From assembly GCA_951406725.2 (NCBI GenBank), contig OX597827.1, forward strand, positions 46,314,001 through 46,378,000: a DNA stretch of 64,000 nt. Reading direction: 5' to 3'. The DNA comes from Octopus vulgaris. Lineage: Eukaryota. The translations under genes and the position numbers were made by a program. The notes below the pieces were generated by a model. It worked only from the letters and a program-made list of their open reading frames with translations, searched no databases and was not told the DNA's origin. Below are positions 6,105 to 51,659 of this stretch, one piece after another. Position 1 is the stretch's first letter, and every line of letters begins with the position of its first letter.

Positions 6105-6889
6105 TATTTTCCATGGAGACAGGTGAGAGTTGGCGACAGCAAGGGCATCCAGCTGCAGAAAATCTGCACCATTGAATTCTGTCTGAGCTATGCAAGGATG
6201 GAAAATGGACATTAAAATGATGATGATGATGGTGATGATAATGATAAAAAAAGTTACATGTGTGTGTGTGTGTGGCACTAGTGTGACAAACAAAAATACA
6301 TTGTGGTATTGAGTTATATCCCTTGATATCAAAAAAGTAAAGCTATTTGATAAATAAACATTGATGAACCAGAAAAAAAATACCGGCAGTGGTGTTGGTG
6401 CTCTGGTATGGCCACAATTCAATCACTGAGAGTAGGAAATGGATAAAAGAATCTCTCTGAAATTATAAACATTGATTTGAGTACAAGCATTCCTGTTGCT
6501 ACCATCATCACCACAATAACAACCATGATGACCGCAATATCAGCAACAACCACCATTGCCATAAGAATCGAAATCCAAGAAACAAAAACACATTAAAATC
6601 AAAAGGTGAAGAGGATTTATTATATATATATATATGTATATGTATGTCTATATAGATGATATAGTCAATAGGAGAAAGGAAGTTCATAAAAATCATTTTA
6701 TTTCCTCTGTTGTTTTCATATGTGTTTGCTATGATATCACGACCTTATGGAGTTTTCTCACGTCTTTGCAACCAAGAGGATATCGCATGATATCACAGTG
6801 ACATATAATATATTACATTATATTATATTATATTATATTATATTTCTGTAAGATGTCACTTCTTTCAGCTTGTGATCAATCATCTTTAT

Positions 6890-7510
6890 CAATGGTTTCT
6901 ATGGAAACAAAATTATCACATGATCACAGTCACGAACGTAAGATGCTTCTCTTGGATGAGGCTGAGAGGGGATAGAAAAAAAAAATACGTTTGTCATGTA
7001 CATGAACCACAGTCATAAACATCAGTGTCAACATAAGATTGCTTATATGGGAACATTCTCATGTATATAGGATGGTTTCTCTGGGAAACGAAATCATCAC
7101 ATGCCCACAGTCAAATATGTATGGTGGCTTCTTTGAGAACAAAATTGTCATGTGAACACATTCATAAAAATAAGATAGTTTCTATATGAAGAAACAGTCA
7201 AGTGACAAGTAATAAAACTTTGATGGCTTCTACATGAATAATAACTATGTGGTTTATCATAAACATTAAATGGGCTTCTATGGAAACAAAGCTGTCATAA
7301 GATAAGTCATAAATGCAAGATGGTTTCTATGAGTAGTGGAGTTGGGGGGGGGGGGCGGGACAGAACTGTCATATGGTTATAAACATACGATTGTTTCCAT
7401 GAGAACAGGACTGTGACAAGTTCAGTCATAAATATAAGATGGTATCTTAGAAAATAGAAATGTCAATGTGACAAAATGGCTTCTATGGGAATATGATTGT
7501 TAAACGACCA
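6890..7510. repeat. degenerate ~50-bp minisatellite (atggtttctatggaaacaaaattgtcat..agtcataaatataag)
   Basis: about a dozen diverged units by eye; one more unit after the SINE at ~7945-7990. Confidence 0.65.
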
Positions 7511-8532
7511 TCTTTTGTTTTTTTTTTCTTTCCACTTGTTTCAGTCATTTGATTCTGCCCATGCTGGGGCACCACCTTGAAAGGTTTTAGTTGAATGAAT
7601 TGATCCCAGGACATTTTACTTTTTTATATTTTTTTTAAGATTTGTACTTATTCTATCAATCTCTTTTTTTTTTTGCAAAAATTCCTAAGTCATGGGGACG
7701 TGAACAAACCAATACCAGTTGTCAAGTAGTGGTGGGGAACAAACACAAAATAAAAAAACACACACACACACACACATAATGTATATATGATGGATATCTT
7801 TGATCTTCCATACCAAATCCATTGACAAGGCTTTGGTCAGCCTGGGCCGAAAGCAGAAGACACTTGCCCAAGGTACCATTCAGTGGGACTGAACCCAGAA
7901 CCATGTGGTTGGGAAGCAACCTTCTTATCACACAGCTACATACAGTCTCTATGGAAACTGTTGTCACCTGATCAGTCATAAAAGTAACAGATAGAAAAAT
8001 GGACACGAAGCTATTGCATATGAAAAAATTGTTGTTTTCCCCATTTTTCTAAATGTTACAGACATGTTTACAAGTGCCAAACTGTAGTACCGTTTTTTTA
8101 AATATTTTTATTTCTTTTTCTTTTTAGCAGAGAAGAGGGGTACATCTGTTTGTGCCATGGAGATAATATACTTCAACCCAACAATTTCATTAGTTCTTTA
8201 TGAGTTCTCTTAAATTTCACCTCAGTGTTTCTGGTCAAGTCTCAGCACTCCTTTTTGGTTTGTTGTGTTCTCTCAATCTTTGATATGACAATTAAAAAAA
8301 ATCAAAATGCTTTAATACTGATAGTAGAGTAGTTTATCATTGTTTAGTTCCCAGATCAGCCATATCAAATAGTCTTATGATGATACACATTCCAGCTGTG
8401 ACCATCATGTCATTTTTTTTTGGTTTTCATTTTTTGATGTGGCCTTCATCTAAGATGGCAAGGTATGATTTGAGGGATATTTGGCTATTATTCATAGGTG
8501 GTCAAACAGTCCTGCAGACATTTTCTTTTTAA

Positions 8533-8749
8533 CCCTTTTGATACCAACCCACCTGAGACTACACCTCCTGGTTCTATAATACAAATGTCTTGTTTTAAAA
8601 TTAAAACCTTTCATTAAAATTTCTAGTTAATTTATGTTCCATACACCAGCTTAATAATGACAAAAGTTATTCGTTAAATTCTCCATCATTTTCAAAATTA
8701 CTTGAAACAAAGACAGTATAGTTAAACAAAAAATTTGGTAAGAAAAGGG
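8533..8749. mobile_element. piggyBac-type MITE
   Basis: TTAA on both sides, CCCTTT/AAAGGG termini; homologous to 13360-13579. Confidence 0.75.
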
Positions 8750-9428
8750 TTAAAGCAATGCCGTCCAGTCACTGACCATTAGTAAACAGAGTGAATCCTA
8801 GTGTAGATGCTTTGTCAATCACTAACAGAAAGGGCAAATCCTTTAGATTCCTGATGAATATTTCAAGTGACAGATCTTGTAATTGATCAAACCGGAATTT
8901 TTTTCTTTTTGTATCTGGGTCTCAGTCAGCATAAATTATCCCCCTGCTCTTCTTTTGAAGGGTTTTCAAGATTGGTGGAATGAAGGGAGGGAGATAAAAA
9001 CTAGAATTCAAGGATTCTCTTCAAACTTGAGACCCAAGTCAAAGGCTTGCAAAATGGTGGAATCCATTAAAAGTGACTCACAGTCATGATGACAATGTTT
9101 CCTATAGTTTTTAGTTGTCTGTCTGTACAAATATTTTACATTGTACCATTTTTTTTTTTTACCTGTGACATCCATTTTTCCATTTGATATTTCCATACAG
9201 TTGTGAGTTGGAAGAAACTTCTTTTGTCAGAATGAGGCAGTCTTTCACAGTTGGATGTCCTTTATGATGCCAACCTATGCTTATTTTTCAAGTAAGGTTT
9301 TTTTTTTATTTCACTGTTCTTCAGATGTCAAAACTGTCCAGCAATGCCACATTTCATTTTTATGGATGATGTAAACAAGCTCCAAGGAAGTTCATGCAAG
9401 TTCATGTATACACACACACATATATACA

Positions 9429-9478
<50 letters not shown>

Positions 9479-10803
9479 CATATATAATATGTGTGAAGGT
9501 GCATAACTTAGTGGTTAGGGTATTCAGCTCACAACCGTAAGGTCACGAGTTCAATTCCCAGGGTTGCGTTGTGTCCTTGAGCAAGACACTTTAGTTCACT
9601 CTGCTCCAGTCCACTCAGCTGGCAAAAATGAGAAACCATGTGACAGACTGGCATCCCATCATCCAGGTGAGGAATATATACATCACAGAAACCAGGAAAC
9701 TGGCACTATGAGTCTATATGATTCAAGGAGCTTTATCCTAGTTTTTTAACCAAGGACCATGTGATTGCAAAGAAAACTTCTTAACTATATTTAGGTCATG
9801 TTTACATGTGTGTGCAATTTCTGAATCACTCCATCGGATTAAAGAGCAGTCACAAAAATACATGGGTCTGATGTTGTGTATCTGTGACAAGGCAGACAGT
9901 TTGTTGAACTTCACACTTCACCAAGTTGTTCAATAAGAAGGAACTTAAACTCAGCACAGCTCAGCAATTTTACAAAGTGCCTGCCAAAGTCCTACGGTGT
10001 TGCTGCAACATACAATGGTGAATTATTTTAAATGTATTAATAGCTCAGTGGGTTGGACCACTTGAAAGAGTTAAATGTCTTGTCCACAGATACACCACAG
10101 CAGTAATGGTAACGAGATTCAAATAGCTGATCCCTTTCGGCTGGTTGGTTGGTTTGTTCAATATTTCTATCAATGAGATTGTCAACATTCTCCAGATATA
10201 TCTGCTGGGGGTGGGGTGGGGGGAAACCAACAAAGTTCACTCTCTTTTTGACGAGGCAGGGGATATAAAAAGTTAATTTTTGAAACGATGGTTATAATGG
10301 AGTGAGCTGACACATCCCACATCCCACTTCCGATTTTTAGTGACATCCAATTCATATCACCTCAGAGACCCTAAAAAGTTAAGTTGACTCTTGCTTTGGC
10401 AGGATTTCAACACTGAACAATATGGTAACAAGAAAGATAGATACAATCAAACAGTTAGTCAGTCCACTGCTAACACACCGACAAGCAGAAACTTCATTGG
10501 ACGAGGTCTTCAAGATGATTTCTTAAAATTATTATTATATATTTATCATGGTTGATTAAATCGATCCTCTTGTATTATCTCTCCTGATAGTATATCACTT
10601 GTGGTTGTTTATGTGAGGAGGGGGTTTTGATCAGTGAGGTACTAAACTAGTTATAGTAAAGCCTCAAGTTCGAAGTAATGTAATTTGGCATAAGGTCTTT
10701 ACTGTGTCCACTTGTGTCAACAAAACAATAAATATACCCACAACAATAAACAGCTTCACTGTGACAATGATCCCAATTCTTGATTCCAGACGTAATTGAA
10801 TGT

Positions 10804-12147
10804 TTAAGCAATGTGTGATTCCAGATGAATCTTTAGATGAAAGTAATCGAAGAAGTCTTCACCGCAGACCTGACAATGGAAAATATTCTCCAGCGTGTGT
10901 GTTTTGATGTGTTTTTTCAACAAGCTTTTCTCGGCATACTGCTTTTCACAAATGTCACATTGGAAAGGTTTCTCCCCCGTGTGAATCCGAATGTGTCGTT
11001 TCAGGTGATAGTTGTCGGAAAACCCCTTCCCACACAACTCGCACAGGTAGGGTTTTTCCCCGGTATGCGTTCGAATGTGTCTTTTCAAGTGGAAATTTTC
11101 AGAAAAGGTTTTCTCACATACTTTGCATTGCAAATTCTTCTCTCTCAGATGCATTCTCATGTGACCCTGCAAGTGGAAGTTTTGAACAAATTCTTTGTCG
11201 CAAATCTGACAAGTGAATGGTTTCTCCCCGCTGTGGATCCTCATGTGCCCTTTCAGCTGGAAATTCTGAGCAAATTCTTTGCCACACATATCACAAACAA
11301 AAGGTTTTTCACCTGTATGTCTCCTCATGTGTATCTCCAAATTATTTTTCTGCAGAAAATCTTTGCCGCAGACTTCGCAGTGGAACTGCTTCACAGCTGT
11401 GTGTCTTCGGACATGTTTCCTCAGGAAACTCTTCGAAGCAAACCCTTTCCCGCAAATGTCACAGGTAAAAGGTTTATCACCAGTATGCGATTTGTTATGG
11501 ACTTCTAAGCTGGATTTATGAGAAAAGTCTTTCCCACAGATATCACAGTGAAAGGGTTTCACGCCTGAATGCGTTCTACAATGCATTTCCAATAAAGATT
11601 TAATAGAAAAACTCTTTCCACAAACTCCACAAGGAAAAGGCTTTACACCTAAATGAGTTTTGATGTGTCTCGTTAAATGAGATTTATTATAAAATTTCTT
11701 ATCACACTTTTCACAGCCAAAAGGTTTATCCCCCGTGTGTGTCCTGATGTGTGTAACTAGCTGAGGTTTCGTTGTAAAGTCTTTACTACAAATATCACAA
11801 TGGTATGGTTTCAGCCCTAGATGTATAGCAATGTGTCTTTTCAAGTGGTAATTAGTTGCAAAATCCTTGGTACACATCTTGCAACAAAATGGTTTTTCCC
11901 CATTGTGTCTCCTCACATGCATTTCAAACTGAGCTTGTACAGTAAAATTCTTGCCACATTCGTCACAATGATGAATTTTCCTGGCATTGTGAGTCTCAAC
12001 ATGTCTTTTAAGATGAGCGTTCTTGGCATACTCCTTCCCACAAACCTCACATTGGTATGGTTTTGCCCCAGTATGCATTTTCATATGTACTCTCAAATAG
12101 ATTTTCTGAGAGAATTCTTTGTGACATATTTCACATTTGGCCTGCAT
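10804..12147 (-). CDS. C2H2 zinc-finger protein, 447 aa, 16 tandem fingers, no effector domain, single coding exon
   Basis: ORF is 16 consecutive C-x2-C-x12-H-x3-H units at 28-aa spacing with TGEKPF/Y-type linkers; ATG context gtcatcATG; stop at 10804. Confidence 0.95.
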   Translation of the reverse strand: MQAKCEICHKEFSQKIYLRVHMKMHTGAKPYQCEVCGKEYAKNAHLKRHVETHNARKIHHCDECGKNFTVQAQFEMHVRRHNGEKPFCCKMCTKDFATNYHLKRHIAIHLGLKPYHCDICSKDFTTKPQLVTHIRTHTGDKPFGCEKCDKKFYNKSHLTRHIKTHLGVKPFPCGVCGKSFSIKSLLEMHCRTHSGVKPFHCDICGKDFSHKSSLEVHNKSHTGDKPFTCDICGKGFASKSFLRKHVRRHTAVKQFHCEVCGKDFLQKNNLEIHMRRHTGEKPFVCDMCGKEFAQNFQLKGHMRIHSGEKPFTCQICDKEFVQNFHLQGHMRMHLREKNLQCKVCEKTFSENFHLKRHIRTHTGEKPYLCELCGKGFSDNYHLKRHIRIHTGEKPFQCDICEKQYAEKSLLKKHIKTHTLENIFHCQVCGEDFFDYFHLKIHLESHIA

Positions 12148-13037
12148 GATGACGGGTATTTTTCAAGGTGAAAAGTATATGTAAGTATGTATGTATATAT
12201 ATATACACGGTTTCCTACCTCCAGTTGTAGGAGAGGTCATATGCCCTCTGCCATTAGAGCTTGACAAGTTGTCTATAAAGCTAAGCGCTTCATGGATGCA
12301 AAACCATTGGTCACTCTATGACCAGACATACATTTAATTGCATGTAAATACATTATAGATCTATCTTTAGAGTGTGCTTTTTTTCTTTTCAGATATATGA
12401 TCCACTGACAATGTGTGTGTGTGTGTGTGTATGTATGAATGGTTTAAAAGGAACAAATTTCCAGGAATGAAACAGTGATAAAAATATGTAAATAAATAAA
12501 TTTGTTCCTTTGAAGTTACTGTTGCCGTGGAAAATAGCTATGCAATGTTCTGTTTCCTCTGTGTGCAAATGCAAATATGCAACCAGCATGCAAAGGAAAC
12601 AAACACATGTGCAAAAGCTACATTCGTTCAAAAGTGATGCATGGCTGGTTCAAAGTGATGCATGGCTAGTTCACAGGTTCCATCCATCATCAAAACCCTA
12701 AGGTAACATACTTTATATAATGCATGCATACTTAGATCTCTTTTCTTTCTTTTTTGCATTTATGAAATAGATGCCAAAACTATCTTAATACTTTCAGGTT
12801 TACATGCACTCAAGAATTTTGTGCAAACATATGTTTGTTGTTGCTGTTGCTGCTGGGGGCAAAATCTGCACATCATAATAATGCTGTGTGCAAAACCGAT
12901 TAAAACTTAAGAGAGGTGAGTCTGGTCAAGTGGTGCTGCCATCACAGTACTGAAGATGATAACTGCCACAAATTCCATGGAAATGTAGAGAAACTGCTAT
13001 CACCACAGACTAACTGTAAGCATACCAATGCATTTAC

Positions 13038-13093
13038 CTGGTAAAAATACACCAAAATGCGGAAACTGTTTGACACCATGGAGATGGTAATTC
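13038..13093 (-). other. possible upstream (5' UTR) exon of the ZNF gene
   Basis: 56-bp non-repetitive segment bounded on minus strand by ttattttcag acceptor and CAG|gtaaat donor; no transcript evidence. Confidence 0.3.
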
Positions 13094-13122
13094 CTGAAAA
13101 TAAATGACAAAATTATGGTATC

Positions 13123-13209
13123 ATATACTCTTCAACTAAATATATGAAATATATATACTCTTCAACTAAATATATGAAATATATATACTCTTCAACTAAA
13201 TATATGAAA
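13123..13209. repeat. 30-bp tandem repeat, about three copies
   Basis: atatactcttcaactaaatatatgaaatat repeated. Confidence 0.9.
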
Positions 13210-13359
13210 CAAATGATTAATATATAATTAATATATGTAATATACATATTATACATGCAAATATATATATATATATATAAGACATTAAAATAAGGATGGA
13301 TAATTATACAGCCACAAAGATTGTTTATTACAGTCATATATACAATATATTCTCTTTAA

Positions 13360-13579
13360 CCCTTTCGTTACCAACCCAGCTGAAACTGCTTCTGGCTCTG
13401 TAGTACAAATATCTTGTTTTCAAAAGTTTGAATTAAAATCTTCCACCCATCCTTAGTCACAATTTATGTGCCTAACACTAGCTTAATGATATCTAAGTTA
13501 TTATACTAAATTCTTTGTTATATTTAAAGTAATTGAAAGAAATACAGAGCATCTCAACAGAAAAATGGTAACAAAACGG
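13360..13579. mobile_element. piggyBac-type MITE (second copy)
   Basis: ttaa-ccctttcgttacca ... tggtaacaaaacgg-ttaa. Confidence 0.75.
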
Positions 13580-14079
13580 TTAAAACTCTATCTGCCCGGT
13601 AAGGTATCTGCCCAGTAAGGTATCTGCCCAGATTTCATATCCTTATCCATTCACTCTATGTATGCATGGGCCACCCTGTGTATATATATATATATATGTC
13701 TGAGACCCCATTCGGTCATGACACAGACCATGGGATTGCACCTAGAAAGTTACCCTCCCAGGCACAAGTCCGGGCAAGGTTGTTTATGGAAGACCAGCAG
13801 TCGCCCATGCATACCGGCCTTCCCTCTCCACGCCACCAGTGTTATCCAAATGAAAGGCAAAGGCTGATACAGCTTGGCACCAGTGACATTGCAACTCATT
13901 TCTACAGCTGAGTGAACTGGAGCAATGTGAAATAAAGTGTCTTGCTCAAGAACACAACACGCAGCCCAGTCTGGGACTCGAGCTCACAACCTCACAATCG
14001 TAAGCTCAACGCTCTAACCACTGAGCCATGCTGGTGTCCTCGTCCCTATGCATCACATGACCATACCAGTGCAATCTTC

Positions 14080-14220
14080 TCTCTTGGCATCAGATGTGAT
14101 GCGCAAGAGAGAAGACTGCACTGGTATGGGCATGTGATGCAAATGGATGAGGACAGCAGAATAAAGAAGTGCCGAGCTCTAACAGTGGAGGAAACCTGTG
14201 GAAGAGGTAGACCCAAGAAC
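14080..14220 (+). mobile_element. RTE-clade LINE C-terminal fragment (related fragment ~20845-20990)
   Basis: RRLHWYGHVMQMDE..GRGRPK motif. Confidence 0.7.
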
Positions 14221-14271
14221 CATGTGGTTGGTAAGTAAGCTACTTACCATACAGTCACTCCTATGCCTATG

Positions 14272-14304
<33 letters not shown>

Positions 14305-16444
14305 ATATATATACATCATCATCATCATCATCATTGTTTAACGTCTGCCTTACATGCTGCCATGGGTTGGACGGTTTGACAGGAGTAGGCCAGGTAGAAC
14401 CCTACACCAGACTGTGTCTGTTTTGGTAGGATTTATATATATATATATAAAGCATCCAGGCCAACACCATGTAATAAGCACCTGTGCAGGCGTCACATAC
14501 AAGCACACCTGTGCTGGTGCCATGTACATGAACACCCATGCTGGCACCACGTAAAAAGCAGCTAGTACACTCTGTAAAGTAGTTGGCGTTAGGAAGGGCA
14601 TGCAGCCGTAGAAACCATGTCAAAACAGACAACTGGACCCCAGTGCAGCCCTCTGGTATGCCAGACTCTTGATTCAACATTAACATTGTCTGACTCTCTG
14701 CTCAACATCAACACTCTGACCCCACTCCACTGTCCAACCCATGCCAGCATGATGATGATGATGATGAAGACGATGATGATATTGATGATATATACGAGCT
14801 GTATCTAACCACTAGTTATTATATATACTCTAGAACGAGTCCCTGTTATACTATTAATATTGTATCAGATACTAAATAATATCCTACGCATTATGCACGC
14901 ATGTGAGCATGCATGCGTAAATAAACGCAAGCATGGTCGAAGGATTAAAAAGTGAGCCTCGGAATAATGAGGGCCGGGTTCGATCTCACTATATGGTATC
15001 TTGGGCAAGTACTGTTTACGAAACAGAGTAGAGGGAAACTGGATGGAAGTTCGTTGGATGGGATGTACTTGTAATTCAATGGATCGACCTCGTCATACAC
15101 TGACTCTACGTAAGGGAGCAAGTGTCCGCGGAATAACCAGCCACTTACACTACAATTCGATAAGCATGTAGTGCAGTTGATGATCGAACAGCTGGAATAG
15201 TCAGCATCGAAACAGACGGAGATCCATCTGAAATGTCACGCTTCTAGCATTCATGACTCTTTTACGGATAAAAAACAGCATCAAAATCTTTCGTAGTAAA
15301 CCCTGATCTGGTCACAAAAAAAAATCTACCTTTATATATATATCATCATTATTATTATTATTTGTACTACGACGGATGGCTGTAACAGCCCTCCACCGAT
15401 ATCCCCGAAGTTGGCACTGCACTCCGGTTAGAATTTTTCAAAAATAATATAAAATCCCTTCCTGAATCATTTATATATTCATTAATTACTTCTCTACTTA
15501 CATTTAAAATGTTTCCGTTGTATTTCCAAGTAACTTGCACAGTTCCACAGTCTGTACAGAAAAAGATAAATCTCAGAAACATGGGAGACAACTGGCTTAA
15601 CGACCTGCCCAGTTCGTTCTATTTCTCTCTCTCCCTCAAACACACTCGCATACATAACATTAATATACGGAGTGGATATCCGAGTTACACATAACTTATA
15701 TGTATGCATGAGTGTGTTATGTATGTGAAGGTGCGTGGTCCAGTGGTTAGGTTGTTACGATCACGAGATCGTGAGTTCGATTCCAGGACCGGGCGGTGCA
15801 TTGTGCTCTTGAGCAAAACACTTCATCTCACGTTATTCTCCGAGCTGGCAGAAACGTTAGCACGCCGGGCGAAATGCTTAGCGGTATTTCGTCTGCGTTA
15901 CGTTGTGAGTTCAAATTCCGCCGAGGTCGACTTTGCCTTTCATCCTTTCGGGGTCGATAAATTAAGTACCAGTTACGCACTGGGGTTGATGTAATCGACT
16001 TAATACCTATGTCTGTCCTTGTTTGTCCCCTCTATGTTTAGCCCCTTGTGGGTAATAAAGAAATAGGTATTTCGTCTGCGTTACGTTGTGAGTTCAAATT
16101 CCGCCGAGGTCGACTTTGCCTTTCATCCTTTCGGGGTCGATGAATTAAGTACCAGTTACGCACTGGGGTCGATGTAATCGACTTAATACCTATGTCTGTC
16201 CTTGTTTGTCCCCTCTGTGTTTAGCCCCTTGTGGGTAATAAAGAAATAGTTATTATCCGATCACTTAGACGTCTGACTGTGGCACAGCGTGCACCTGTAC
16301 AGGCAATGACGATCTGATGGAGAGAGTGGGCTAATAATGTACAGCATAAACAAACAAATCAACTGAACAGGTTGCTCAACAAGAAACTGCACACCGGATC
16401 CCAACTTTTCCTCGCACTCGACAGACTACCAATATATCTTTGCA

Positions 16445-27059: not shown

Positions 27060-27400
27060 ACAGTAAAGAGAAGCTATCACCCTGGAGGATGCCTTGTTGG
27101 TAATATATGGTGTCAGATTTGATGCCTTCATTGTTACCTCTAAGAAGTAAAGAAGTGTACCAGTTTTTGGTCAGATGGTTGGTCAGCAGCTACCAGTGGT
27201 GCTGATACTTTGGCTAATTGCAGTGCTTTGATAATCCATCCATATGGTAGACTATCAAGGGTTTTGGGGGAGTCCAGCCATAACATAGCCAAGATTTTGT
27301 GGTTGTTTATTGTTCTTTCCCATATAATTTTTTTAATTAGTAGATGCTTCACATATCCCCGTGCTTTCTTCTTTTCACCAATTTGTTCAAGAATTACAAT
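27060..27400 (-). mobile_element. R4/Dong-like non-LTR RT fragment
   Basis: EQIGEKKKARG..LLI, MLWLD..KTLDSLPYGWI and QGILQGDSFS motifs. Confidence 0.7.
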
Positions 27401-28378
27401 ATTGTCGGCCAACTTAAAGAATGCCACAGTGCTGAAATATGCAGATGACATCAAGCTGTACCTCGAAATAAATAGGACAGATCCTGTACACTACAGATCT
27501 TTATTGCAATCAGACCTAGACACAAAGCAGCAGTGGATCATGGACTGGCAACTCAAGCTGGCTGTGTACAAATGTACCACCATGCATTTCGGGAGGAAAA
27601 TTCCAGCATCTACTTACTCTTCTTGTGAACGTGGCCTGGGCATTATTGTTGACAGCGATTTGTGTTGGACAAAACACATTGCTAAAATTGCCAAGAAGGC
27701 TGAGGGTGTCTTGGCATCACTTACCAAGTCCTTTGTGCCGCTCTCCAGCTATCTATCTGAGGCTTTATATAGCAATGGTGCAGCCTCACCTGGAATTTGC
27801 ATCACCAGTCTGGAACCCCTATCTTGCCCAGGATTTTAATCGTCTGGAAACTGTTCAGCGGCTTGCAATCAAGAGAATACCCTCCATCAGGCATTTGCCA
27901 TATTCTGAACGCCTTACTTCTCTGGGCATGGATACATTGAAACTCCGACATCTGGCAACTGACTTGGCAGACACCCATAAAATTATTAACCATCTTACTA
28001 ACAATAATTCCGACCACTTTTTCAAACTCCACCCGTCTAACACCTGTGGACATGTTTACAAAGTCAGAAAACAGCACAGCTCCCATGACTTTTGGAAACA
28101 TTTTTTCACACTAAGAGTTGCTGAAGCATGCAACAAACTGCCGGCATCAGTTGTTAGTTGTCGGAGCACTGCATCCTTCAAAACTTCCATGCTTCCTGAG
28201 ATCGCCAACACTACACCTGATTTTCTCCCCTCCATACACACGCAAGCATGTATCTAACTCATACACTGTTCACTTTCCAGACATTTGTACATTACAGCAT
28301 ATGTTTTATACGCACTTTTGACAAGTTGTAGTGCACCTGATCACTGTATACAATAATTTCATTATTATTATTATTATT
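27401..28378 (+). mobile_element. 5'-truncated CR1/L2-group LINE with frameshifted RT and (ATT)n tail
   Basis: KYADDIKLY, LQSDLD, GLGIIVDSDL, VQPHLEFASPVWNP motifs across two frames; ends caataatttc(att)n. Confidence 0.85.
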
Positions 28379-29015: not shown

Positions 29016-29677
29016 GCGTGTGTATTTACACACACGCACACACACGCGCAAATGCACACATATATATATGCATTTATAGTGCGCGTGTGTATGTACATAT
29101 GTATATTAAACGCATATTTAAATTGTCTCACGAAAATAAAATGACGAGGCCATAAACCAAGGTAACACTATAATTTACCGAAACAATAACCTCCAAGTAT
29201 TATTTATCTGTAAATATTGGTAGACATCGTATATAAAACAAGAGGAGAGTGCTAAGATATTATTTACATACAATTGATGAAGATTAGGCTCTGGTGCTAA
29301 GTACGGATGGCCAAACGCAATGCAATTTTCAGACGCTTTCAAGCTCGTGTATGTGTGCGCGTACACGTGTGTCGGTGTGTGTGCAGGTGTACGTTAAGGT
29401 ATGTGTGTGGATGTGTGAGCATCATTCTTTTATTCTTTCATTTGTTTCAGCCATTTGACTGCGGCCCTGTTGGAGCACCGCCTTTAGTCGAACAAATCGA
29501 TCCCAGGACTTATTCTTTGTAAGCCTTGTACTTACCCTATCGTTCTGTTTTGCCAAACCGCTAAGTTACGGGAACGTAAACACACCAACATCGGCTGTCA
29601 AGTGATAGTAGGGGGAAAAAACACAGACACACACACACACACACACATACACACACACACACTCACACACACACACA

Positions 29678-29715
<38 letters not shown>

Positions 29716-32629
29716 GACAGGCTTCTTTCAGTTTCCGTCTACCAAATCCACTCACAGGGCTTTGATCGGCCCGAGGCTATAAGTAGGAGACATTTGCCCA
29801 AGGTGCCACACAGTGGGACTGAACTCGGAACCACGTGGATGGTAAGCAAGCTACTTACAACACAGCCACTCATGCACCTTATCTTTTCATGTTTCAGACT
29901 TTAGACTGCAGCCACGCCGAGGCACCGCTTTGAAGAATTTTAGTCGACCGAATCGACCCCTATACTTGCTTTAAAAAAATGTCTGGCGCAGGCGTGGCTA
30001 TGTGGTAAGAAGCTTGCATCCCAATCACATGGTTCCGGGTTCAGCCCCACTGCGTGACAGCTACGGTAAGTCTCTTCTACTATAGCCTCGGGCCGACCAA
30101 AGCCTAGGTAGACGGAAACTGAAAAGAAGCCCGTCGTATATATGTATGTATGTATGTATGTATGTGTCTTTGTGTCTATGTTTGTCTCCCCACCATCACT
30201 TGACATCCGATGTTGGTGTGTTTACGTTCCCGTAATATAGCGGTTCAGCAAAAGAGACCGATAGAATAAGTACTAGGTTTACAAAGGATAAGTCCTGGGG
30301 TCGATTTGTCCGACTAAAACGCTTCAAAATGGTGCTCCAGCCTGTTCGCAGTCAAGTGACTGAAGCAAATAGAAAATATAAAAGAACATTTGTTCTCTTT
30401 GTGTCTTTTGCGAAGCCACTAGTTAACGGGGACGTGAACATACCAAGACCGGTTTTCAAGCGGTGGCAGTGGAAAACACACACACACCCACGCACACCCA
30501 CACACACTCACACCCACACACATGCACGCACACACACACACACGCGCGCATAAACACACATACACGCGCACGCACGCAAGACGAGCTTCTTTCAGTTTCT
30601 ATCTATCAAATCCACTCACAAGGTTTTGGTCGGCCCAGAGCTCACCCAATGTGTCGCGCAGTGGAACTGAACCCGGAACCACATGTTTGTGAAGCAAACT
30701 TCTTATATTAACCATGCCTACGCCAGTAGTTCAGAATTACATTCTGTATATCTTACTTAACGTGGATATGATGTAGAAAGTCACAAATCTCAGAAACTTG
30801 CCCAAGGTGCCACGCAGCGGGACTGAACCTGGAACCATGTGGTTGGGAAGCAAATATCCGAAATGAAAATGACCTAACTAAAACAACACAGACGAGCCAG
30901 TGACATGTATTTGAACAACAAAGACGGATAAGAGCGTATCAAATAACATACACAATAATTCTTTTTCTTAGACGCATCTTTCCTCCCGTGGAGGCACATG
31001 GCCTAGTGGTTAGAGCAGCGGACTCGCGGTCGAGTGATCGCGGGTTCAAATCGCAGACCGGGTGATGTATGTGTTTCTGAGCGAAACACCTAAGCTCTAC
31101 GCGGCTCCGGCAGAAGGTAATGGTGAACTTCTGCTGACTCTTTCGCCACAACTTTCTCTCACTCTTTCCTCCTGCATCTTGCAGCTCACCTTCGACGGAC
31201 CGGCGTCCCGACCAGGTGGGGAACCTATACGCCAAGGAAACCAGGAAACCGGCCCTATGAGCCAGGCATGGCTCGAGAAGGAACAAACAACAATCTTTGT
31301 TTCCAGAAAAGGTAGAATAATTGGTTGGTGTCAGTTAAGTCTAAGAAGGGGGAGATAATCTCAAGAATCAAGAGTTTTCTAAAGTTGATATGCCATTAAG
31401 GAAAAGACAGTCTTTCTGAAGACGAAGGGACAACTGTTGGAATAAGTTTCTGTCTCAATCGGCGTCATAAGCATAATGACCCACTTTGTCTTTAGTAGAC
31501 GAGATACTTGAACATACGCAAAAAAGAGTAGAATACATTTTTTGTCCTTGTAATTTGCATAAGTGAAGCCAAAATAACTTAGAGTGGGTTTAATGTTCTG
31601 TATTTATTAAATTATTGATTTGTGCCCAAAAATTAATCACATTATCATAATTAGTATGTAAAACTACATTAATGAGGAAAATTTCAAAATATCGAACACT
31701 GCGAACGAAACATCAGAGTTCACACACACACACACACACACACATCTCTTCCTCTCTCTGTATATCCAAACATGTGTATGTGTGTGATAAAAGACGATGA
31801 ATAGACAATAACATTTCAATACTTGTTACACGTGTTTTAATAGTATGGTAATTTATTCGACTGCAGCCAATTTTTATTCCACTGACAGTTCGGTTGCCCG
31901 AGGAAATGGAAAGTGATTTCTAATTACATATTACGTAATGCACAAATAATGAATAAATTACAATGCTACAGAAATATATGTAGCATGTATAGAACTGTTA
32001 TCCTTCAGTCATCTTTCTAATTTACATTTCTTTATATCACGAGAAACGTAACAAATTTTACTACTGAGATTCGAGTTGCAAAGTAGCTGATATCATTAAA
32101 CAACCGTTTTCAATGGTGATCTGATCGTAAAACGAGGATATTAGATTATTGATTTATTAGCATTCCTACTGTGTTAACCGCAAGGCATTTTGCACGCTGG
32201 AAACTACCGGGCTATTGTCCACAATCGACAGAATCTGAACCAATTGTTGTCACTTTCGAACGATGCCACCCCGCTAGTTAGACAGGAAGGCCAACATAGC
32301 CCCTGCATGGAACGCCTCTACTCAAAATTATCTGTTTTACTCACTCACTCCCATTATCTCTCTATTTTTATTCACCACATACCACTCTCACAACAACCAG
32401 TAGTTTATCTTTTTTTTTACTATTTGAGCGACTTCCTTTAGCCTTACACACATTTACGGAAGTAGGAACGTGGTTATAATTATGTGTGTGTGTATAAATA
32501 TATGTATATATGTGTGTGTGTTAGGATATGTAGGTATATCATACATATATACACAAATGTGAATACATAAATCATCATATATATGTCTGTGTGTGTGTAT
32601 ATGTGTATTTATGCATGTATGTATGTATG

Positions 32630-36361: not shown

Positions 36362-36547
36362 TAAGCAATTAAGGGTTTAGCAACGAATTGCCTCACCACA
36401 CACCGAATTTAGAAATAGCAGTCAAAGAGTTATAGCTATTCTTTCTACTAAAAGGGAGATCTCAGTAAAAACACACCACTTGAAAGGCAAACACAGACAG
36501 GTAAGAGAGAATGAAATGACGGCAATCTATCATACAATTTTAAGTCA

Positions 36548-36638
36548 CCTACGGACGTACGTTTCGAAATTAAGTTTTAGGAAAGCATAAGAATTAGATA
36601 ATTATATCTTACCCAACTTCTTTTCTCATCAGCGTAGG
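36548..36638 (-). ncRNA. type I hammerhead ribozyme motif (mirror copy)
   Basis: reverse complement of 37002-37092. Confidence 0.85.
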
Positions 36639-37001
36639 ACACTACAATTATGAATAATTGTATATTAAATTTCGAGATACTAGAAGGCATCATCTCAACT
36701 CAGTATCAGAGCGAGCTAAAGCCGTTACCAGTACCACCAAATTCAAAGTGTGAATGAAAGTTTGTGTCACCAGCCCCTTCCCACCCGCGTGTAGCCAAGA
36801 CAAGATGCTGTGGTCATTTACTGGGATGAAATATGGTTATCAGTAACAATATAGGGTGAAATTAATTAATTTGGAATAATTTTCATTCACACTTTGAATT
36901 TGGTGGTACTGGTAACGGCTTTAGCTCGCTCTGATACTGAGTTGAGATGATGCCTTCTAGTATCTCGAAATTTAATATACAATTATTCATAATTGTAGTG
37001 T

Positions 37002-37092
37002 CCTACGCTGATGAGAAAAGAAGTTGGGTAAGATATAATTATCTAATTCTTATGCTTTCCTAAAACTTAATTTCGAAACGTACGTCCGTAGG
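37002..37092 (+). ncRNA. type I hammerhead ribozyme motif
   Basis: stem I cctacg/cgtagg; CTGATGA 37008-37014; stem II gaaa..tttc; GAAA 37075-37078; palindromic stem III ACGTACGT; GUC cleavage triplet ending 37086. Confidence 0.85.
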
Positions 37093-37276
37093 TGACTTAA
37101 AATTGTATATGATAAATTGCCGTCATTTCATTCTCTCTTACCTGTCTGTGTTTGCCTTTCAAGTGGTGTGTTTTTACTGAGATCTCCCTTTTAGTAGAAA
37201 GAATAGCTATAACTCTTTGACTGCTATTTCTAAATTCGGTGTGTGGTGAGGCAATTCGTTGCTAAACCCTTAATTG

Positions 37277-37364
<88 letters not shown>

Positions 37365-46239: not shown

Positions 46240-46522
46240 ATAGGAGAGGAAAAAATAAGGCAGAATGCTAAATTGAAAGTAAATTTTTATAAAATTGGGT
46301 GTATGAAAAATTAAAAAATTAAAAAAGAAAAAAAAATCAAACCAGCTTACATTGGAAGGCAAATTTAAAAAAAAAATTTTTCTCCTTCCAAATCTTGAAA
46401 ATTTGCCTTGCAATTAAAGCTGGTTTGATTTCTTTTTCTTTTTTAATTTTTCATACACCCAATTTTATAAAAATTTACTTTCAATTTAGCATTCAATTTA
46501 GCATTATTATTTTTTCCTCTCC

Positions 46523-46525
<3 letters not shown>
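46240..46525. repeat. AT-rich inverted repeat (arms ~46240-46366 and 46399-46525)
   Basis: ataggagaggaaaaaataa..gctaaattgaaagtaaatttttataaaattgggtgtatgaaaaatt and its reverse complement. Confidence 0.8.
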
Positions 46526-46607
<82 letters not shown>

Positions 46608-47286
46608 ATATTTCGGAATGGTCATATTGCCAGTTTAGCCAATAAAAACACACGCACTATATATTTGGTGTTATTTTGCTTCAGTGATATTTATTTTTTA
46701 CATTAATCTTAATCTTATTTCGGCCAAAGTTCTTTCGTCACACTCCTGTGACCGCATCAGTGGTCCTTTGTTTTCTTCTCACTTACTTGTGTCTCTCCTT
46801 ACTAACCGTCAGCCATTTTGTATTTCTATTGTATGTCTTCATTTGCGCATGCTTATATCTCTATGTGCGTCTATGTTTATTTAGTGTGTGTGTGTGGGGG
46901 GGGGATGCCTGTAATATTTGTATCTTCTGGTTATATACATTCTTGTAATTTGTATTTTGTTTTTGTTGTTGTTGCTTTTGTTCTAATTTTGTTCATGTGT
47001 TTACATCCACCCATTATTATCATTACATATGCTTGTATGTATGTATAACAACAATATTAGTAATAATAATAATAAATCTAATCGAGAAAAAAAAAAAAAG
47101 AATATACATATACATATATATATATATATACATACATATACATATACATATATATATATATACATATATACACACATATATACACATATACATATACATA
47201 TATATACACATATACATATATATAGATATTCATTTCTATTTCTTTAATTACCTGTGTATTTATTATGTTTGCAGGATCCACTATTG

Positions 47287-48458
47287 TCATATGTTGTGGT
47301 GTGCGCTATTGCTCCATTCTAGTTTTCTATTCAGGCTAGGTTTATTTTCTATTATATGTGTAGCTTCTGTAATTTGTCTAATTGTTGCATCTGTTCTATG
47401 TGTGGACAATATCTTAATCTCTATGTTATTGATTGATCCCCCGTGTTCTTGTTCGGCGTGTTGGTACAGAATCGATGAGCTTTTACCTTCCTTGAGTTGT
47501 CTCCAATGTTCATTCACCCGCTCACCAATGCTTCTTGCAGTTTCCCCTACGTATGTTACTGTCTTGTTACTGCATCGTCCCTCTATACATCTTATACTAT
47601 AGACCACATTTCTGGCTTTACAGTTCGTTTGTGGGCTAAATCTACATACAGTGCAATAGTTATCCGTACAGAGAGTTCTACTAAAAGGATAGGTTCTACC
47701 AATTATAGATCTGATAGGGTTGCCTGGCTTTTCAACAACCTTAATTCTTAGTTTAAGTTTATCTAGGGTCCTTCTAAAGCGGTACGCTAGTTCACCTCCA
47801 GGGGTGGTGTCAACGAACATGACACTCTGGTATTTATGGCTATCATACCAAGAGTTGGCCTTCCTTATTTTCTTTTTTGTCCTTTCTATAGTGTTCCACG
47901 ACTTGTTCCTATAGAGTGGGCAAATCCCATTCCTATCATTACATAATATATTATCAAATTTCTTCATGGCTCCTTTGTATACTCTGATCCTTTCTTTATG
48001 GCTGTAACCTGAGAACTGCATGCGGTGAATGAAATACTGTATGTGTCTCTTTAATTCTGTAGGCTCGCACATGCGTGACACATTTCTCATTATTCTGACG
48101 AGGTCTGCCATCAAAATATTGAATTTGGCATTGCCCGCAATGGCTGAGTTCCGGTGGATCAGGTATTTTGAGGCCATAGGTTTTGCATAGTATGAATGAA
48201 GGATTTGGGTTTTATTTTTCACAATTTCTAGCCAGAGTTCAGTGTCTAGTACTGGTAGTCTATGGTTGGGGTGTTTAGTGGGGTAGTCTATTGTGACCTT
48301 AATACTCTGGTGGATGGAGTTAGCTATTTGCTGGATGCTCTCCATAGTATTAGTTTCTATTACTATATCAACAGTACTCTCTTGTGGGGGTGCCTTTACT
48401 ACTATATTGATATCATCAACATAGCGAGAGTACATGTTTACGAGTATGGATTTCTGCA
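47287..48458 (-). CDS. inverted duplicate of the Penelope-like RT/GIY-YIG ORF
   Basis: translation identical to the + strand copy from QKSILVN to the stop. Confidence 0.9.
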
Positions 48459-48467
48459 TACATTTAA

Positions 48468-49754
48468 ATTAATAATAAAATATATGCCCAGGACGAGGGG
48501 GCAGCCATCGGTGTTAGTATCGCTGGTGATGTGGCCAACCTCTTCATGGTATGGTGGGACAGAAGGCTTAAAGAATGCCTACTGCAGAAATCCATACTCG
48601 TAAACATGTACTCTCGCTATGTTGATGATATCAATATAGTAGTAAAGGCACCCCCACAAGAGAGTACTGTTGATATAGTAATAGAAACTAATACTATGGA
48701 GAGCATCCAGCAAATAGCTAACTCCATCCACCAGAGTATTAAGGTCACAATAGACTACCCCACTAAACACCCCAACCATAGACTACCAGTACTAGACACT
48801 GAACTCTGGCTAGAAATTGTGAAAAATAAAACCCAAATCCTTCATTCATACTATGCAAAACCTATGGCCTCAAAATACCTGATCCACCGGAACTCAGCCA
48901 TTGCGGGCAATGCCAAATTCAATATTTTGATGGCAGACCTCGTCAGAATAATGAGAAATGTGTCACGCATGTGCGAGCCTACAGAATTAAAGAGACACAT
49001 ACAGTATTTCATTCACCGCATGCAGTTCTCAGGTTACAGCCATAAAGAAAGGATCAGAGTATACAAAGGAGCCATGAAGAAATTTGATAATATATTATGT
49101 AATGATAGGAATGGGATTTGCCCACTCTATAGGAACAAGTCGTGGAACACTATAGAAAGGACAAAAAAGAAAATAAGGAAGGCCAACTCTTGGTATGATA
49201 GCCATAAATACCAGAGTGTCATGTTCGTTGACACCACCCCTGGAGGTGAACTAGCGTACCGCTTTAGAAGGACCCTAGATAAACTTAAACTAAGAATTAA
49301 GGTTGTTGAAAAGCCAGGCAACCCTATCAGATCTATAATTGGTAGAACCTATCCTTTTAGTAGAACTCTCTGTACGGATAACTATTGCACTGTATGTAGA
49401 TTTAGCCCACAAACGAACTGTAAAGCCAGAAATGTGGTCTATAGTATAAGATGTATAGAGGGACGATGCAGTAACAAGACAGTAACATACGTAGGGGAAA
49501 CTGCAAGAAGCATTGGTGAGCGGGTGAATGAACATTGGAGACAACTCAAGGAAGGTAAAAGCTCATCGATTCTGTACCAACACGCCGAACAAGAACACGG
49601 GGGATCAATCAATAACATAGAGATTAAGATATTGTCCACACATAGAACAGATGCAACAATTAGACAAATTACAGAAGCTACACATATAATAGAAAATAAA
49701 CCTAGCCTGAATAGAAAACTAGAATGGAGCAATAGCGCACACCACAACATATGA
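48468..49754 (+). CDS. Penelope-like element ORF, 5'-truncated: C-terminal RT, Cys-rich linker and GIY-YIG endonuclease
   Basis: [21 protein letters not shown] and [10 protein letters not shown] motifs; [10 protein letters not shown] linker; [27 protein letters not shown] motifs; frame open from 48468. Confidence 0.92.
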
Positions 49755-50273
49755 CAATAGTGGATCCTGCAAACATAATAAATACACAGGTAATTAAAGA
49801 AATAGAAATGAATATCTATATATATGTATATGTGTATATATATGTATATGTATATGTGTATATATGTGTGTATATATGTATATATATATATATGTATATG
49901 TATATGTATGTATATATATATATATATGTATATGTATATTCTTTTTTTTTTTTTTTCTCGATTAGATTTATTATTATTATTACTAATATTGTTGTTATAC
50001 ATACATACAAGCATATGTAATGATAATAATGGGTGGATGTAAACACATGAACAAAATTAGAACAAAAGCAACAACAACAAAAACAAAATACAAATTACAA
50101 GAATGTATATAACCAGAAGATACAAATATTACAGGCATCCCCCCCCACACACACACTAAATAAACATAGACGCACATAGAGATATAAGCATGCGCAAATG
50201 AAGACATACAATAGAAATACAAAATGGCTGACGGTTAGTAAGGAGAGACACAAGTAAGTGAGAAGAAAACAAA

Positions 50274-50318
50274 GGACCACTGATGCGGTCACAGGAGTGT
50301 GACGAAAGAACTTTGGCC
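50274..50318 (+). ncRNA. degenerate hammerhead motif in Penelope 3' UTR/pLTR (mirror at 46722-46766, minus)
   Basis: ggacca-CTGATGC-g-gtcac aggagt gtgac-GAAA-gaac-TT-tggcc; A9 replaced by C. Confidence 0.55.
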
Positions 50319-50493
50319 GAGATAAGATTAAGATTAATGTAAAAAATAAATATCACTGAAGCAAAATAACACCAAATATATAGTGCGTGTGTTTTTATTG
50401 GCTAAACTGGCAATATGACCATTCCGAAATATAACAATATCTGTTTCAACACACGACTTCACATAAAAAATCTTGCACAACAAATATTTAAAC

Positions 50494-50538
<45 letters not shown>

Positions 50539-50571
50539 TATACATACATACATACACATACATACATACAA

Positions 50572-50611
<40 letters not shown>

Positions 50612-51072
50612 CTGTAAATGTTATTTTAACTACAATTAAACTATGACCATTTAATACCATTGATCAACTTCTAATTGTTAATTGTTGATCCATTTCTTTT
50701 CTTATCTGAATATATTAAACCACGGTTTATCATTTAAAATACCAAACTCCTGTTAACCGTATAGCAAGGCCTATACATAGTTAGGTAATACACCTGTAGT
50801 GCCTACGGATACATTTATCCCTTAGACTGTTGCATAACTTCTTACTCATAATTGTTTTCGTCTAAATATTATCTTCCTTTCTACTTCCTTTTCTTTCTCA
50901 GCAGTTACAACAGCGATGGTTCATTACGTCATTTTCTCTAAACTAGAATTTTCACGTTCTTATTTGAATTTTTCGCGTTTCAACTTTTCTCTGTTTTTCA
51001 CTCGTTCCCAAAGTTGACGGACATTTAAAGATATGTAAAACCGAATCTGTTGTGAGACTTTTTATTTTTCGA

Positions 51073-51131: not shown

Positions 51132-51659
51132 ATCTTTTTTTTTTTCAATCAATTTTATTAATACTATTACCTCAACCACCACTATGAAGTTCCAGCAATC
51201 TACGGATAATAACAGGTAATCGAAACAGTGCTGGTGCTTTATTCATCATCCACTTATACATTTTGAATAATTTCTCCATTATATATGTATATATAGAATA
51301 AAACTTTATATATAAAGAACGTGAAATACACGAAGTGACGAATATATATATATATATATAAGAAAAAACCACCTTTTATCAATTCAATATTGAAAAATTT
51401 AATTAAGTAATTTGATTAAGTAATGTACATTACTTAATCATTGGTATATGTTTTTATCTTATATTTAATTTTTTTCTATAGGATGTAATTTTTTTTTCTA
51501 TATGGTATAATTACATTTTTTCATTGTTGAATTGATAAAAAGTGTTTTTCTTTCTTATTTATATATGTATATTATATTTTGTGAAATTTGATTTAGTATT
51601 TCTAAATTGAATTTTTCACTGTAAGTTTGGAATTATATTCCCTAATGAGATTGTATGTA

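Follow-up and report, generated by a model that had tools for sequence, protein, structure and literature searches.

A long and young hairpin of a 5'-truncated Penelope-like element within a (TA)n microsatellite of Octopus vulgaris

Introduction

In a 64,000-nucleotide stretch of the Octopus vulgaris genome (assembly GCA_951406725.2, contig OX597827.1, positions 46,314,001 to 46,378,000; hereafter the window, numbered from its first letter), an initial annotation made from the sequence letters had pointed to a 3.8-kb near-perfect hairpin of a 5'-truncated Penelope-like element (PLE). Such a locus raises three questions, namely whether the hairpin is a genuine insertion, how its two arms were made, and to which PLE lineage it belongs. 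As for the second of these, the making of inverted arms in PLEs is stated as open in passages of two papers (PMC8557442; PMC11167929). Here, we describe the anatomy of the hairpin, weigh the ways in which it could have arisen, and compare its family with known PLE clades.

Results and discussion

Anatomy of the hairpin

Using a repeat finder, we delimited a core of 1375 nt with 100% complementarity (47084-48458 versus 48583-49957), which extends outward to 46600 and 50440, and this confirmed the long hairpin and its spacer (Table 1). The arm-to-arm alignment gave 99.7% identity over 1861 columns, with the arms being identical even over a 125-nt microsatellite. As had been claimed, the arms differ slightly, there being a sole substitution (46719/50321) and two small indels in short runs, these being a 2-nt difference in a T/A run (47100/49942) and a 3-nt difference in a C/(CA) run (46895-7/50145). 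The identical RT-GIY-YIG translations reported for the arms were likewise borne out.

Table 1. Features of the hairpin and its surroundings, in window coordinates.
Positions	Strand	Feature	Basis or detail
46532..46603		(TA)n run at the left end, inferred target; final 4 nt overlap the ATAT end of the arm	pure 72-nt run
46600..48458	-	left arm, an inverted 5'-truncated copy with no tail	1859 nt; arm alignment
46722..46766	-	minimal hammerhead-like motif, left-arm copy	pattern scan, fold
47287..48458	-	left-arm frame with the 3' part of the RT, linker and GIY-YIG	last 389 aa identical to those of the + copy
48455..48458		inversion junction at a TGCA palindrome; presumed microhomology of 2-3 nt to the parent	deduced from protein P0001
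48459..48582	+	spacer, the upstream RT sequence that belongs to the + copy (motif 4/B), its frame shifted by 1 nt near 48469 when set against P0001	124 nt
48468..49754	+	open frame with RT motifs 4-7, thumb, Cys linker and C-terminal GIY-YIG; lacks a start codon and RT motifs 1-3	428 aa
48583..50440	+	right arm (+ copy)	1858 nt; arm alignment
49371..49421	+	CX4CX2C linker, with the next Cys after a gap of 7 aa (spacing like that of Nematis)	by eye against Fig. S2 of PMC8557442 (source seen in part)
49434..49730	+	GIY-YIG endonuclease; CCHH present, R, E and N conserved	Pfam PF01541, E=0.0012 (below cut-off); conserved columns
49755..50440	+	3' region, putative pseudo-LTR (pLTR)	sequence; label suggested by the hammerhead-like motif and the start of the ORF
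50274..50318	+	minimal type-I hammerhead-like motif, right-arm copy	pattern scan, fold
50415..50494	+	opening 26 codons of the element's ORF, from the ATG in the pLTR on into the tail	against the P0030 N-terminus, 10/22 identical
50441..50494	+	one-sided tail, missing from the left arm	54 nt; arm alignment; behind 50440, other copies pass into (TA)n
50495..50532		(TA)n run at the right end	pure 38-nt run

That the loop is the genuine upstream RT sequence of the + copy also proved correct, as its translation (...ANLFM) aligns to P0001, a related octopus protein, from residue 453 onward. In P0001 the preceding residues are HTFK, which are read one frame off at 48457-68, and thus the spacer carries a 1-nt frameshift, overlooked at first, while the native sequence enters the left arm by about 2 nt. 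Also overlooked were the 54-nt one-sided tail, the (TA)n run at both ends, and the hammerhead-like motif in each arm.

Outside the arms, the flanks are not mirror images, and share just a 34-nt TA-rich match and an 11-nt match at chance level, both on the same strand. A target-site duplication is unreadable within (TA)n. Where the tail continues the start of the ORF, the score of the match to the N-terminus of P0030 was reached by 3 of 500 shuffles against the first 60 aa of 50 relatives and by 12 of 500 against the whole proteins, with such a match being seen in only one of 51 long relatives. An internal TA/TG microsatellite occupies about 49814-49941 of the 3' region; around it, we noticed by eye a possible intron (49790-49967, + strand) with donor-like CAG|GTAATT and acceptor-like T-run/AG sites. 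Directly left of the TA tract of the insertion lies an older MITE-like inverted repeat (46240-46525, 77% identity).

Taken as a whole, the hairpin has an already-known PLE insertion shape, in which a 5'-truncated copy adjoins an inverted one, also truncated, with a tail on one side only and (TA)n as the target. According to passages of PMC8557442, an inverted 5'-truncated copy frequently sits directly at the 5' end, and a tail of 30-40 bp is often present at one end. The same unit is described in part of PMC3846280, where the pLTR and the tail together code for the ORF's first 22 aa (26 aa here). When compared with the canonical endonuclease-bearing unit (the portion of PMC8557442 around Fig. 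2; Pen2a_Av in that of PMC3846280), the octopus copy is alike in its truncated and inverted copies, in a tail that continues the ORF start, in its microsatellite target, and in a hammerhead motif near the 3' end (hammerhead-like here). In contrast, its inverted copy is 1.86 kb long with RT and endonuclease coding sequence, whereas the pLTR is about 200 bp, its tail is 54 rather than 30-40 nt, and an upstream direct pLTR is lacking owing to the truncation.

Coding content and the hammerhead-like motif

With RT and GIY-YIG in one ORF, identification as a 5'-truncated PLE is supported. Pfam gave E=0.0012 for GIY-YIG and E=0.014 for RVT_1, both short of their cut-offs. Foremost among the relatives is the O. 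vulgaris protein P0001, with 340 of 349 residues identical. The CCHH residues, with two Cys between GIY and YIG, are present, and the C/H columns are conserved in the alignment of relatives; judged by these and the R, E, and N residues, the GIY-YIG motifs appear intact, as was first proposed. The upstream RT was found in three O. vulgaris proteins (P0001, P0058, and P0081). Since the copy is without RT motifs 1-3 (the first half of the RT) and without the promoter-side pLTR, it is presumably non-autonomous. Separately, we observed that the first ~150 aa of P0081, an F-box/LRR protein model, are 98% identical to the RT region of the octopus family, making P0081 either a gene-prediction fusion or an exonised insertion.

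The hammerhead-like motif in each arm (sites 50280 and 46760) consists of CUGAUG-C, an extra nucleotide, a 6-bp helix II, GAAA, and a 2-bp helix III, with C instead of A at position 9. A pattern scan of the whole window returned one further, weaker site (32745). The motif fits the minimal PLE layout in the cited portion of PMC4209133, save for the C at position 9, and its fold has a z-score of -1.4. At 50313, a variant that is common in the family creates a CUC cleavage triplet. An Rfam search of 46400-50700 returned 24 matches, all below the gathering scores (microRNA on TA repeats and two lncRNA), with no hammerhead among them.

The family in public sequence runs and the reality of the locus

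The octopus PLE family is abundant. At least half of the sampled words are contained in 20 of 24 listed sequence runs, which come from 10 studies, none of the runs being recorded as RNA. Contigs from four runs (6,534-15,684 contigs per run) were aligned to the + copy only. Here, depth climbs toward the 3' end, with the 5' bins at 0.02-0.07 of the 3' bins (summed contig depth, not copy number). Moreover, among 15 of the 45 joints, as listed, we found strand-switch joints belonging to other copies at 50164/50204 (two of four runs), 50213/50356 (one of four), and 50215/50392 (three of four), and loose ends pass into (TA)n behind 50440 (20 contigs for X15, 23 for X2), so that 50440 is an end shared across the family. 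At 50321, nearly all contig depth shows the letter of the left arm, which is thereby the family letter. The copy also differs from nearly all contigs at, for example, 49142 and 49176, although P0001 shares the residue at 49176, and these differences were not counted as private mutations.

Whether a fold-back chimeric long read or a misjoin could have created the second arm during assembly has to be considered first. The near-identity of the arms would suit such an artefact, as would the placement of two of the three arm differences and the spacer frameshift in short runs, which resembles long-read error. Furthermore, the hairpin's own joint (48459/48583) and the flank junctions are absent among the 15 of 45 joints listed, and no contig spans the stretch. 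Against this, the mirror ends at 50440, where other copies end, with the tail and flank left out, and a chimera has no reason to stop there. The left arm, too, bears the family letter where the right arm differs, and strand-switch joints are present in contigs from independent studies. Given an abundant family, joints of this kind in other copies, and copies ending where the left arm ends, we regard an artefact as unlikely, and indeed strongly so.

The same boundary bears on a rearrangement after insertion, in which an ordinary copy would have broken and been mended through template switching or fold-back synthesis. Microhomology junctions are typical of these forms of break repair. Nonetheless, the duplicate stops at the element's own tail boundary without flanking DNA, and the same geometry is recurrent in the family, which together leave this explanation highly improbable. 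The locus is very probably a true and very recent insertion, in a (TA)n microsatellite, of a PLE that bears an endonuclease, the inserted copy being non-autonomous.

From one substitution in 1856 columns and a rate of 0.0036 per site per My (quoted in part of PMC13282606), the insertion would be ~75,000 years old (range 2,000-417,000), an estimate that RT error or conversion between the arms could move either way. Passages of the same paper give 336 recently active Penelope-like insertions for O. vulgaris. A read-through transcript of the hairpin would be expected to form a near-perfect duplex of ~1.86 kb, and the host might conceivably keep such a hairpin as a source of dsRNA/siRNA or as an ADAR substrate against the family. 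This young age and the commonness of the shape speak against it, no selection signal was seen, and we give the proposal scarcely any credence.

How the two arms were made

For the arms themselves, we lean with modest confidence towards an explanation in which this insertion was made by two coupled primings with 3'-end pairing. The order of events that we infer would be as follows. The RT-endonuclease of the element would nick both strands of the TA tract, and each free 3' end would then prime reverse transcription within the RNA of the element, at one or other of two adjacent sites a little inside the beginning of the ORF. One of these would account for the tailed end (50494), its neighbour for the tail-less one (50440). 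The two cDNAs, held in one complex or made on one RNA, would halt at nearly the same place, ~1.9-2.0 kb upstream, where their 3' ends would pair via 2-3 nt (TGC/GCA), with each serving as the other's second-strand template. The outcome would be a head-to-head duplicate with a single-copy spacer of 124 nt.

Priming at two RT start sites accounts for one arm ending at the tail and the other at 50440. It has a precedent in vitro, in a Poseidon PLE that cuts both strands of its target and extends them, with RT starting at two adjacent internal sites whose interval equals the tail (passages of PMC11167929). As the 5' depth is 0.02-0.07 of the 3' depth, two independent cDNAs would rarely both reach so far and stop 124 nt apart, which suggests that their lengths were coupled. 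Several points count against two primings, namely that coupled arm lengths fit a fold-back equally well, that the microhomology is only 2-3 nt and deduced from a protein, that the 54-nt tail exceeds the published 30-40 nt, and that the in vitro work was done on a PLE of another clade. A literature search on Penelope with twin priming found no relevant paper.

Alternatively, a single cDNA from the tailed end could have stopped near 48457, looped 124 nt, self-primed on 2-3 nt, and copied itself as far as 50440, after which its ATAT end joined the TA target. This is close to the initial annotation, in which the inversion 'recopies the element', and such copying does fit the data, though as only one of two mechanisms that do so. 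Self-priming has already been proposed for PLE inverted junctions (passages of PMC3846280). Arms that are identical even through the 125-nt microsatellite would follow naturally from it, as would short spacers, these being 124 nt here, about 40, 143, and 177 nt in other copies, and 115 nt in a second hairpin of the window. Yet the other joints all lie at most 350 nt from the 3' end, where spacers would be short under any model. The copying must also halt exactly at the family-wide end of 50440, and the palindrome at the junction is just 4 nt long. On this evidence we consider a fold-back possible but rather unlikely, and two coupled primings is the explanation that we prefer.

Other repeats in the window

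The second near-perfect hairpin (36362-37280) has arms of 401 and 403 nt that differ by one substitution and a 2-nt indel, and is tail-less with (TA)n at both sides. Its ORFs matched none of the first 50 relatives significantly, nor was a hammerhead found in it; it could represent a foldback element or else a different PLE family's 3' stub. Two further inverted pairs are found at 51344-51572 (gap of 102 nt, 85% identity) and 29425-30386 (gap of 106 nt, 71% identity), the latter resembling two copies of a dispersed SINE-like repeat. Other features include a C2H2 zinc-finger ORF (10807-12162, - strand, 452 aa, 12-15 fingers) ~34 kb from the 3.8-kb hairpin, and a decayed RT fragment (27144-28254, + strand, RVT_1 E=0.00012) that was unmatched by the five PLE proteins tried.

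Clade placement and an insertion between RT motifs A and B

To place the family, we compared its proteins with 297 relatives, in 199 of which the distance between RT motifs A and B was measurable (and in 98 not). The distance is 128 aa in P0001. Among the 199 relatives, 195 have a distance of 117-141 aa, while in the remaining four, which are the weakest matches of the relative search, it is 56-59 aa. In the alignment, the excess is a single block of ~70 aa. This block, which is known through P0001, as it lies upstream of the truncation point of the copy in the window, sits at the position of the telomerase IFD. Read by eye from Fig. S1 of PMC8557442, as far as the figure was seen, the distances are ~57-60 aa in Neptune and Nematis, 81 in one Naiad, 115 in human TERT, and 149 in Tetrahymena TERT, and the block is thus similar in size to that of telomerase RT. 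The possible likeness is one of position and size only, with no sequence match to any TERT chain. In the excerpted text of PMC8557442, the IFD is reported only in Naiad, Chlamys, and some Coprina.

The initial annotation had guessed at Naiad or Neptune. The Naiad assignment fails, since Naiads have an N-terminal endonuclease (passages of PMC8557442) and the endonuclease is C-terminal here and in 80 of the 81 relatives that have both motifs. Naiad and Chlamys do share with this family an RT insertion lying between motifs 3(A) and 4(B), a (TA)n target, inverted copies, and a tail, but their insertion is 20-40 aa as against ~70 aa. For Neptune, there is agreement in the C-terminal endonuclease, the Cys linker before it (CX2-5CxxC), and the (TA)n target; the features otherwise diverge, with a linker gap of ~25 aa (by eye from the Fig. 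S2 rows) versus 7 aa in the octopus copy (and 6-9 aa for 44 of the 52 relatives that could be measured), an A-B distance of ~57 versus 128 aa, and DKG versus DKS. Nematis shares a C-terminal GIY-YIG with CCHH and a CX2-5CxxC linker that is separated from the next Cys by a short gap of 7 aa, though its A-B distance is ~60 aa (Fig. S1 rows) versus 128 aa in P0001. Naiad, Hydra, and Poseidon were rejected on motifs. In the quoted portions of PMC8557442, Hydra has no CCHH, a CxCX5C linker, DKT, and no IFD, whereas this family has CCHH and CX4CX2C, with DKS in P0001; Penelope/Poseidon, in turn, have no Cys linker between RT and endonuclease, whereas one is present here.

In quick trees of the region downstream of the insertion, the rows lacking it (5 of 33, and 3 of 18 in a second tree) fall on one side of a branch with an SH-aLRT of 99, a separation that serves as a lead only, because the trees use hand-picked subsets with long-branch warnings, unlabelled outgroups, and no labelled reference elements. 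Here, the Nematis-looking P0048 falls, on a long branch, outside the octopus lineage, and the Neptune-looking P0047 and P0049 group apart. As a side note on these two Neptune-looking PLE proteins, P0047 carries an N-terminal OTU-like domain and P0049 has precomputed PF01398/PF14464 domains.

Searches in other collections added no clade name. A cluster-representative search gave 270 matches at E<=1e-30, and the few named non-octopus relatives are from sea cucumber and coral. In the PDB, no PLE or TERT chain was matched, P0001 giving one chance match and the profile two bacterial RT and two unrelated chains. The Atlas returned unnamed clusters and RT/HTH_animal clusters, with no clade name. The list of eight PLE clades was confirmed in an excerpt of a bioRxiv preprint. 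In the open literature, to which the search was confined, no paper was found on such an insertion in PLEs with a C-terminal endonuclease, and for Penelope with IFD the matches listed were only Craig 2021 and telomerase papers. Arkhipova 2006 or Repbase may already cover the octopus lineage.

With the features of Neptune and Nematis not fully shared, the octopus lineage is possibly an unnamed one, as far as its motifs indicate. We tentatively suggest, with some doubt, that the family belongs to a large unnamed clade of marine-invertebrate PLEs with a C-terminal endonuclease (DKS, WWD, short Cys linker), in which the RT has a conserved, TERT-sized domain of ~70 aa at the IFD position.

Implications

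By itself, the 3.8-kb hairpin is PLE debris of a known sort, albeit both long and young. Where arms reach kilobase length in a family that is young and abundant, comparing RT errors from one arm to the other can tell fold-back apart from two-primer synthesis. Should the family prove active enough in octopus, young hairpins could settle how the inverted arms of PLEs form. Pfam, moreover, barely detects the RTs of this family, and the lineage may therefore be under-annotated. PLEs are the sister group of telomerase, and hence a telomerase-sized A-B insertion bears on the origin of the IFD. If the assignment holds, a TERT-sized domain at the IFD position would break the published rule of IFD-less canonical PLEs and would give a transposing model for the domain.
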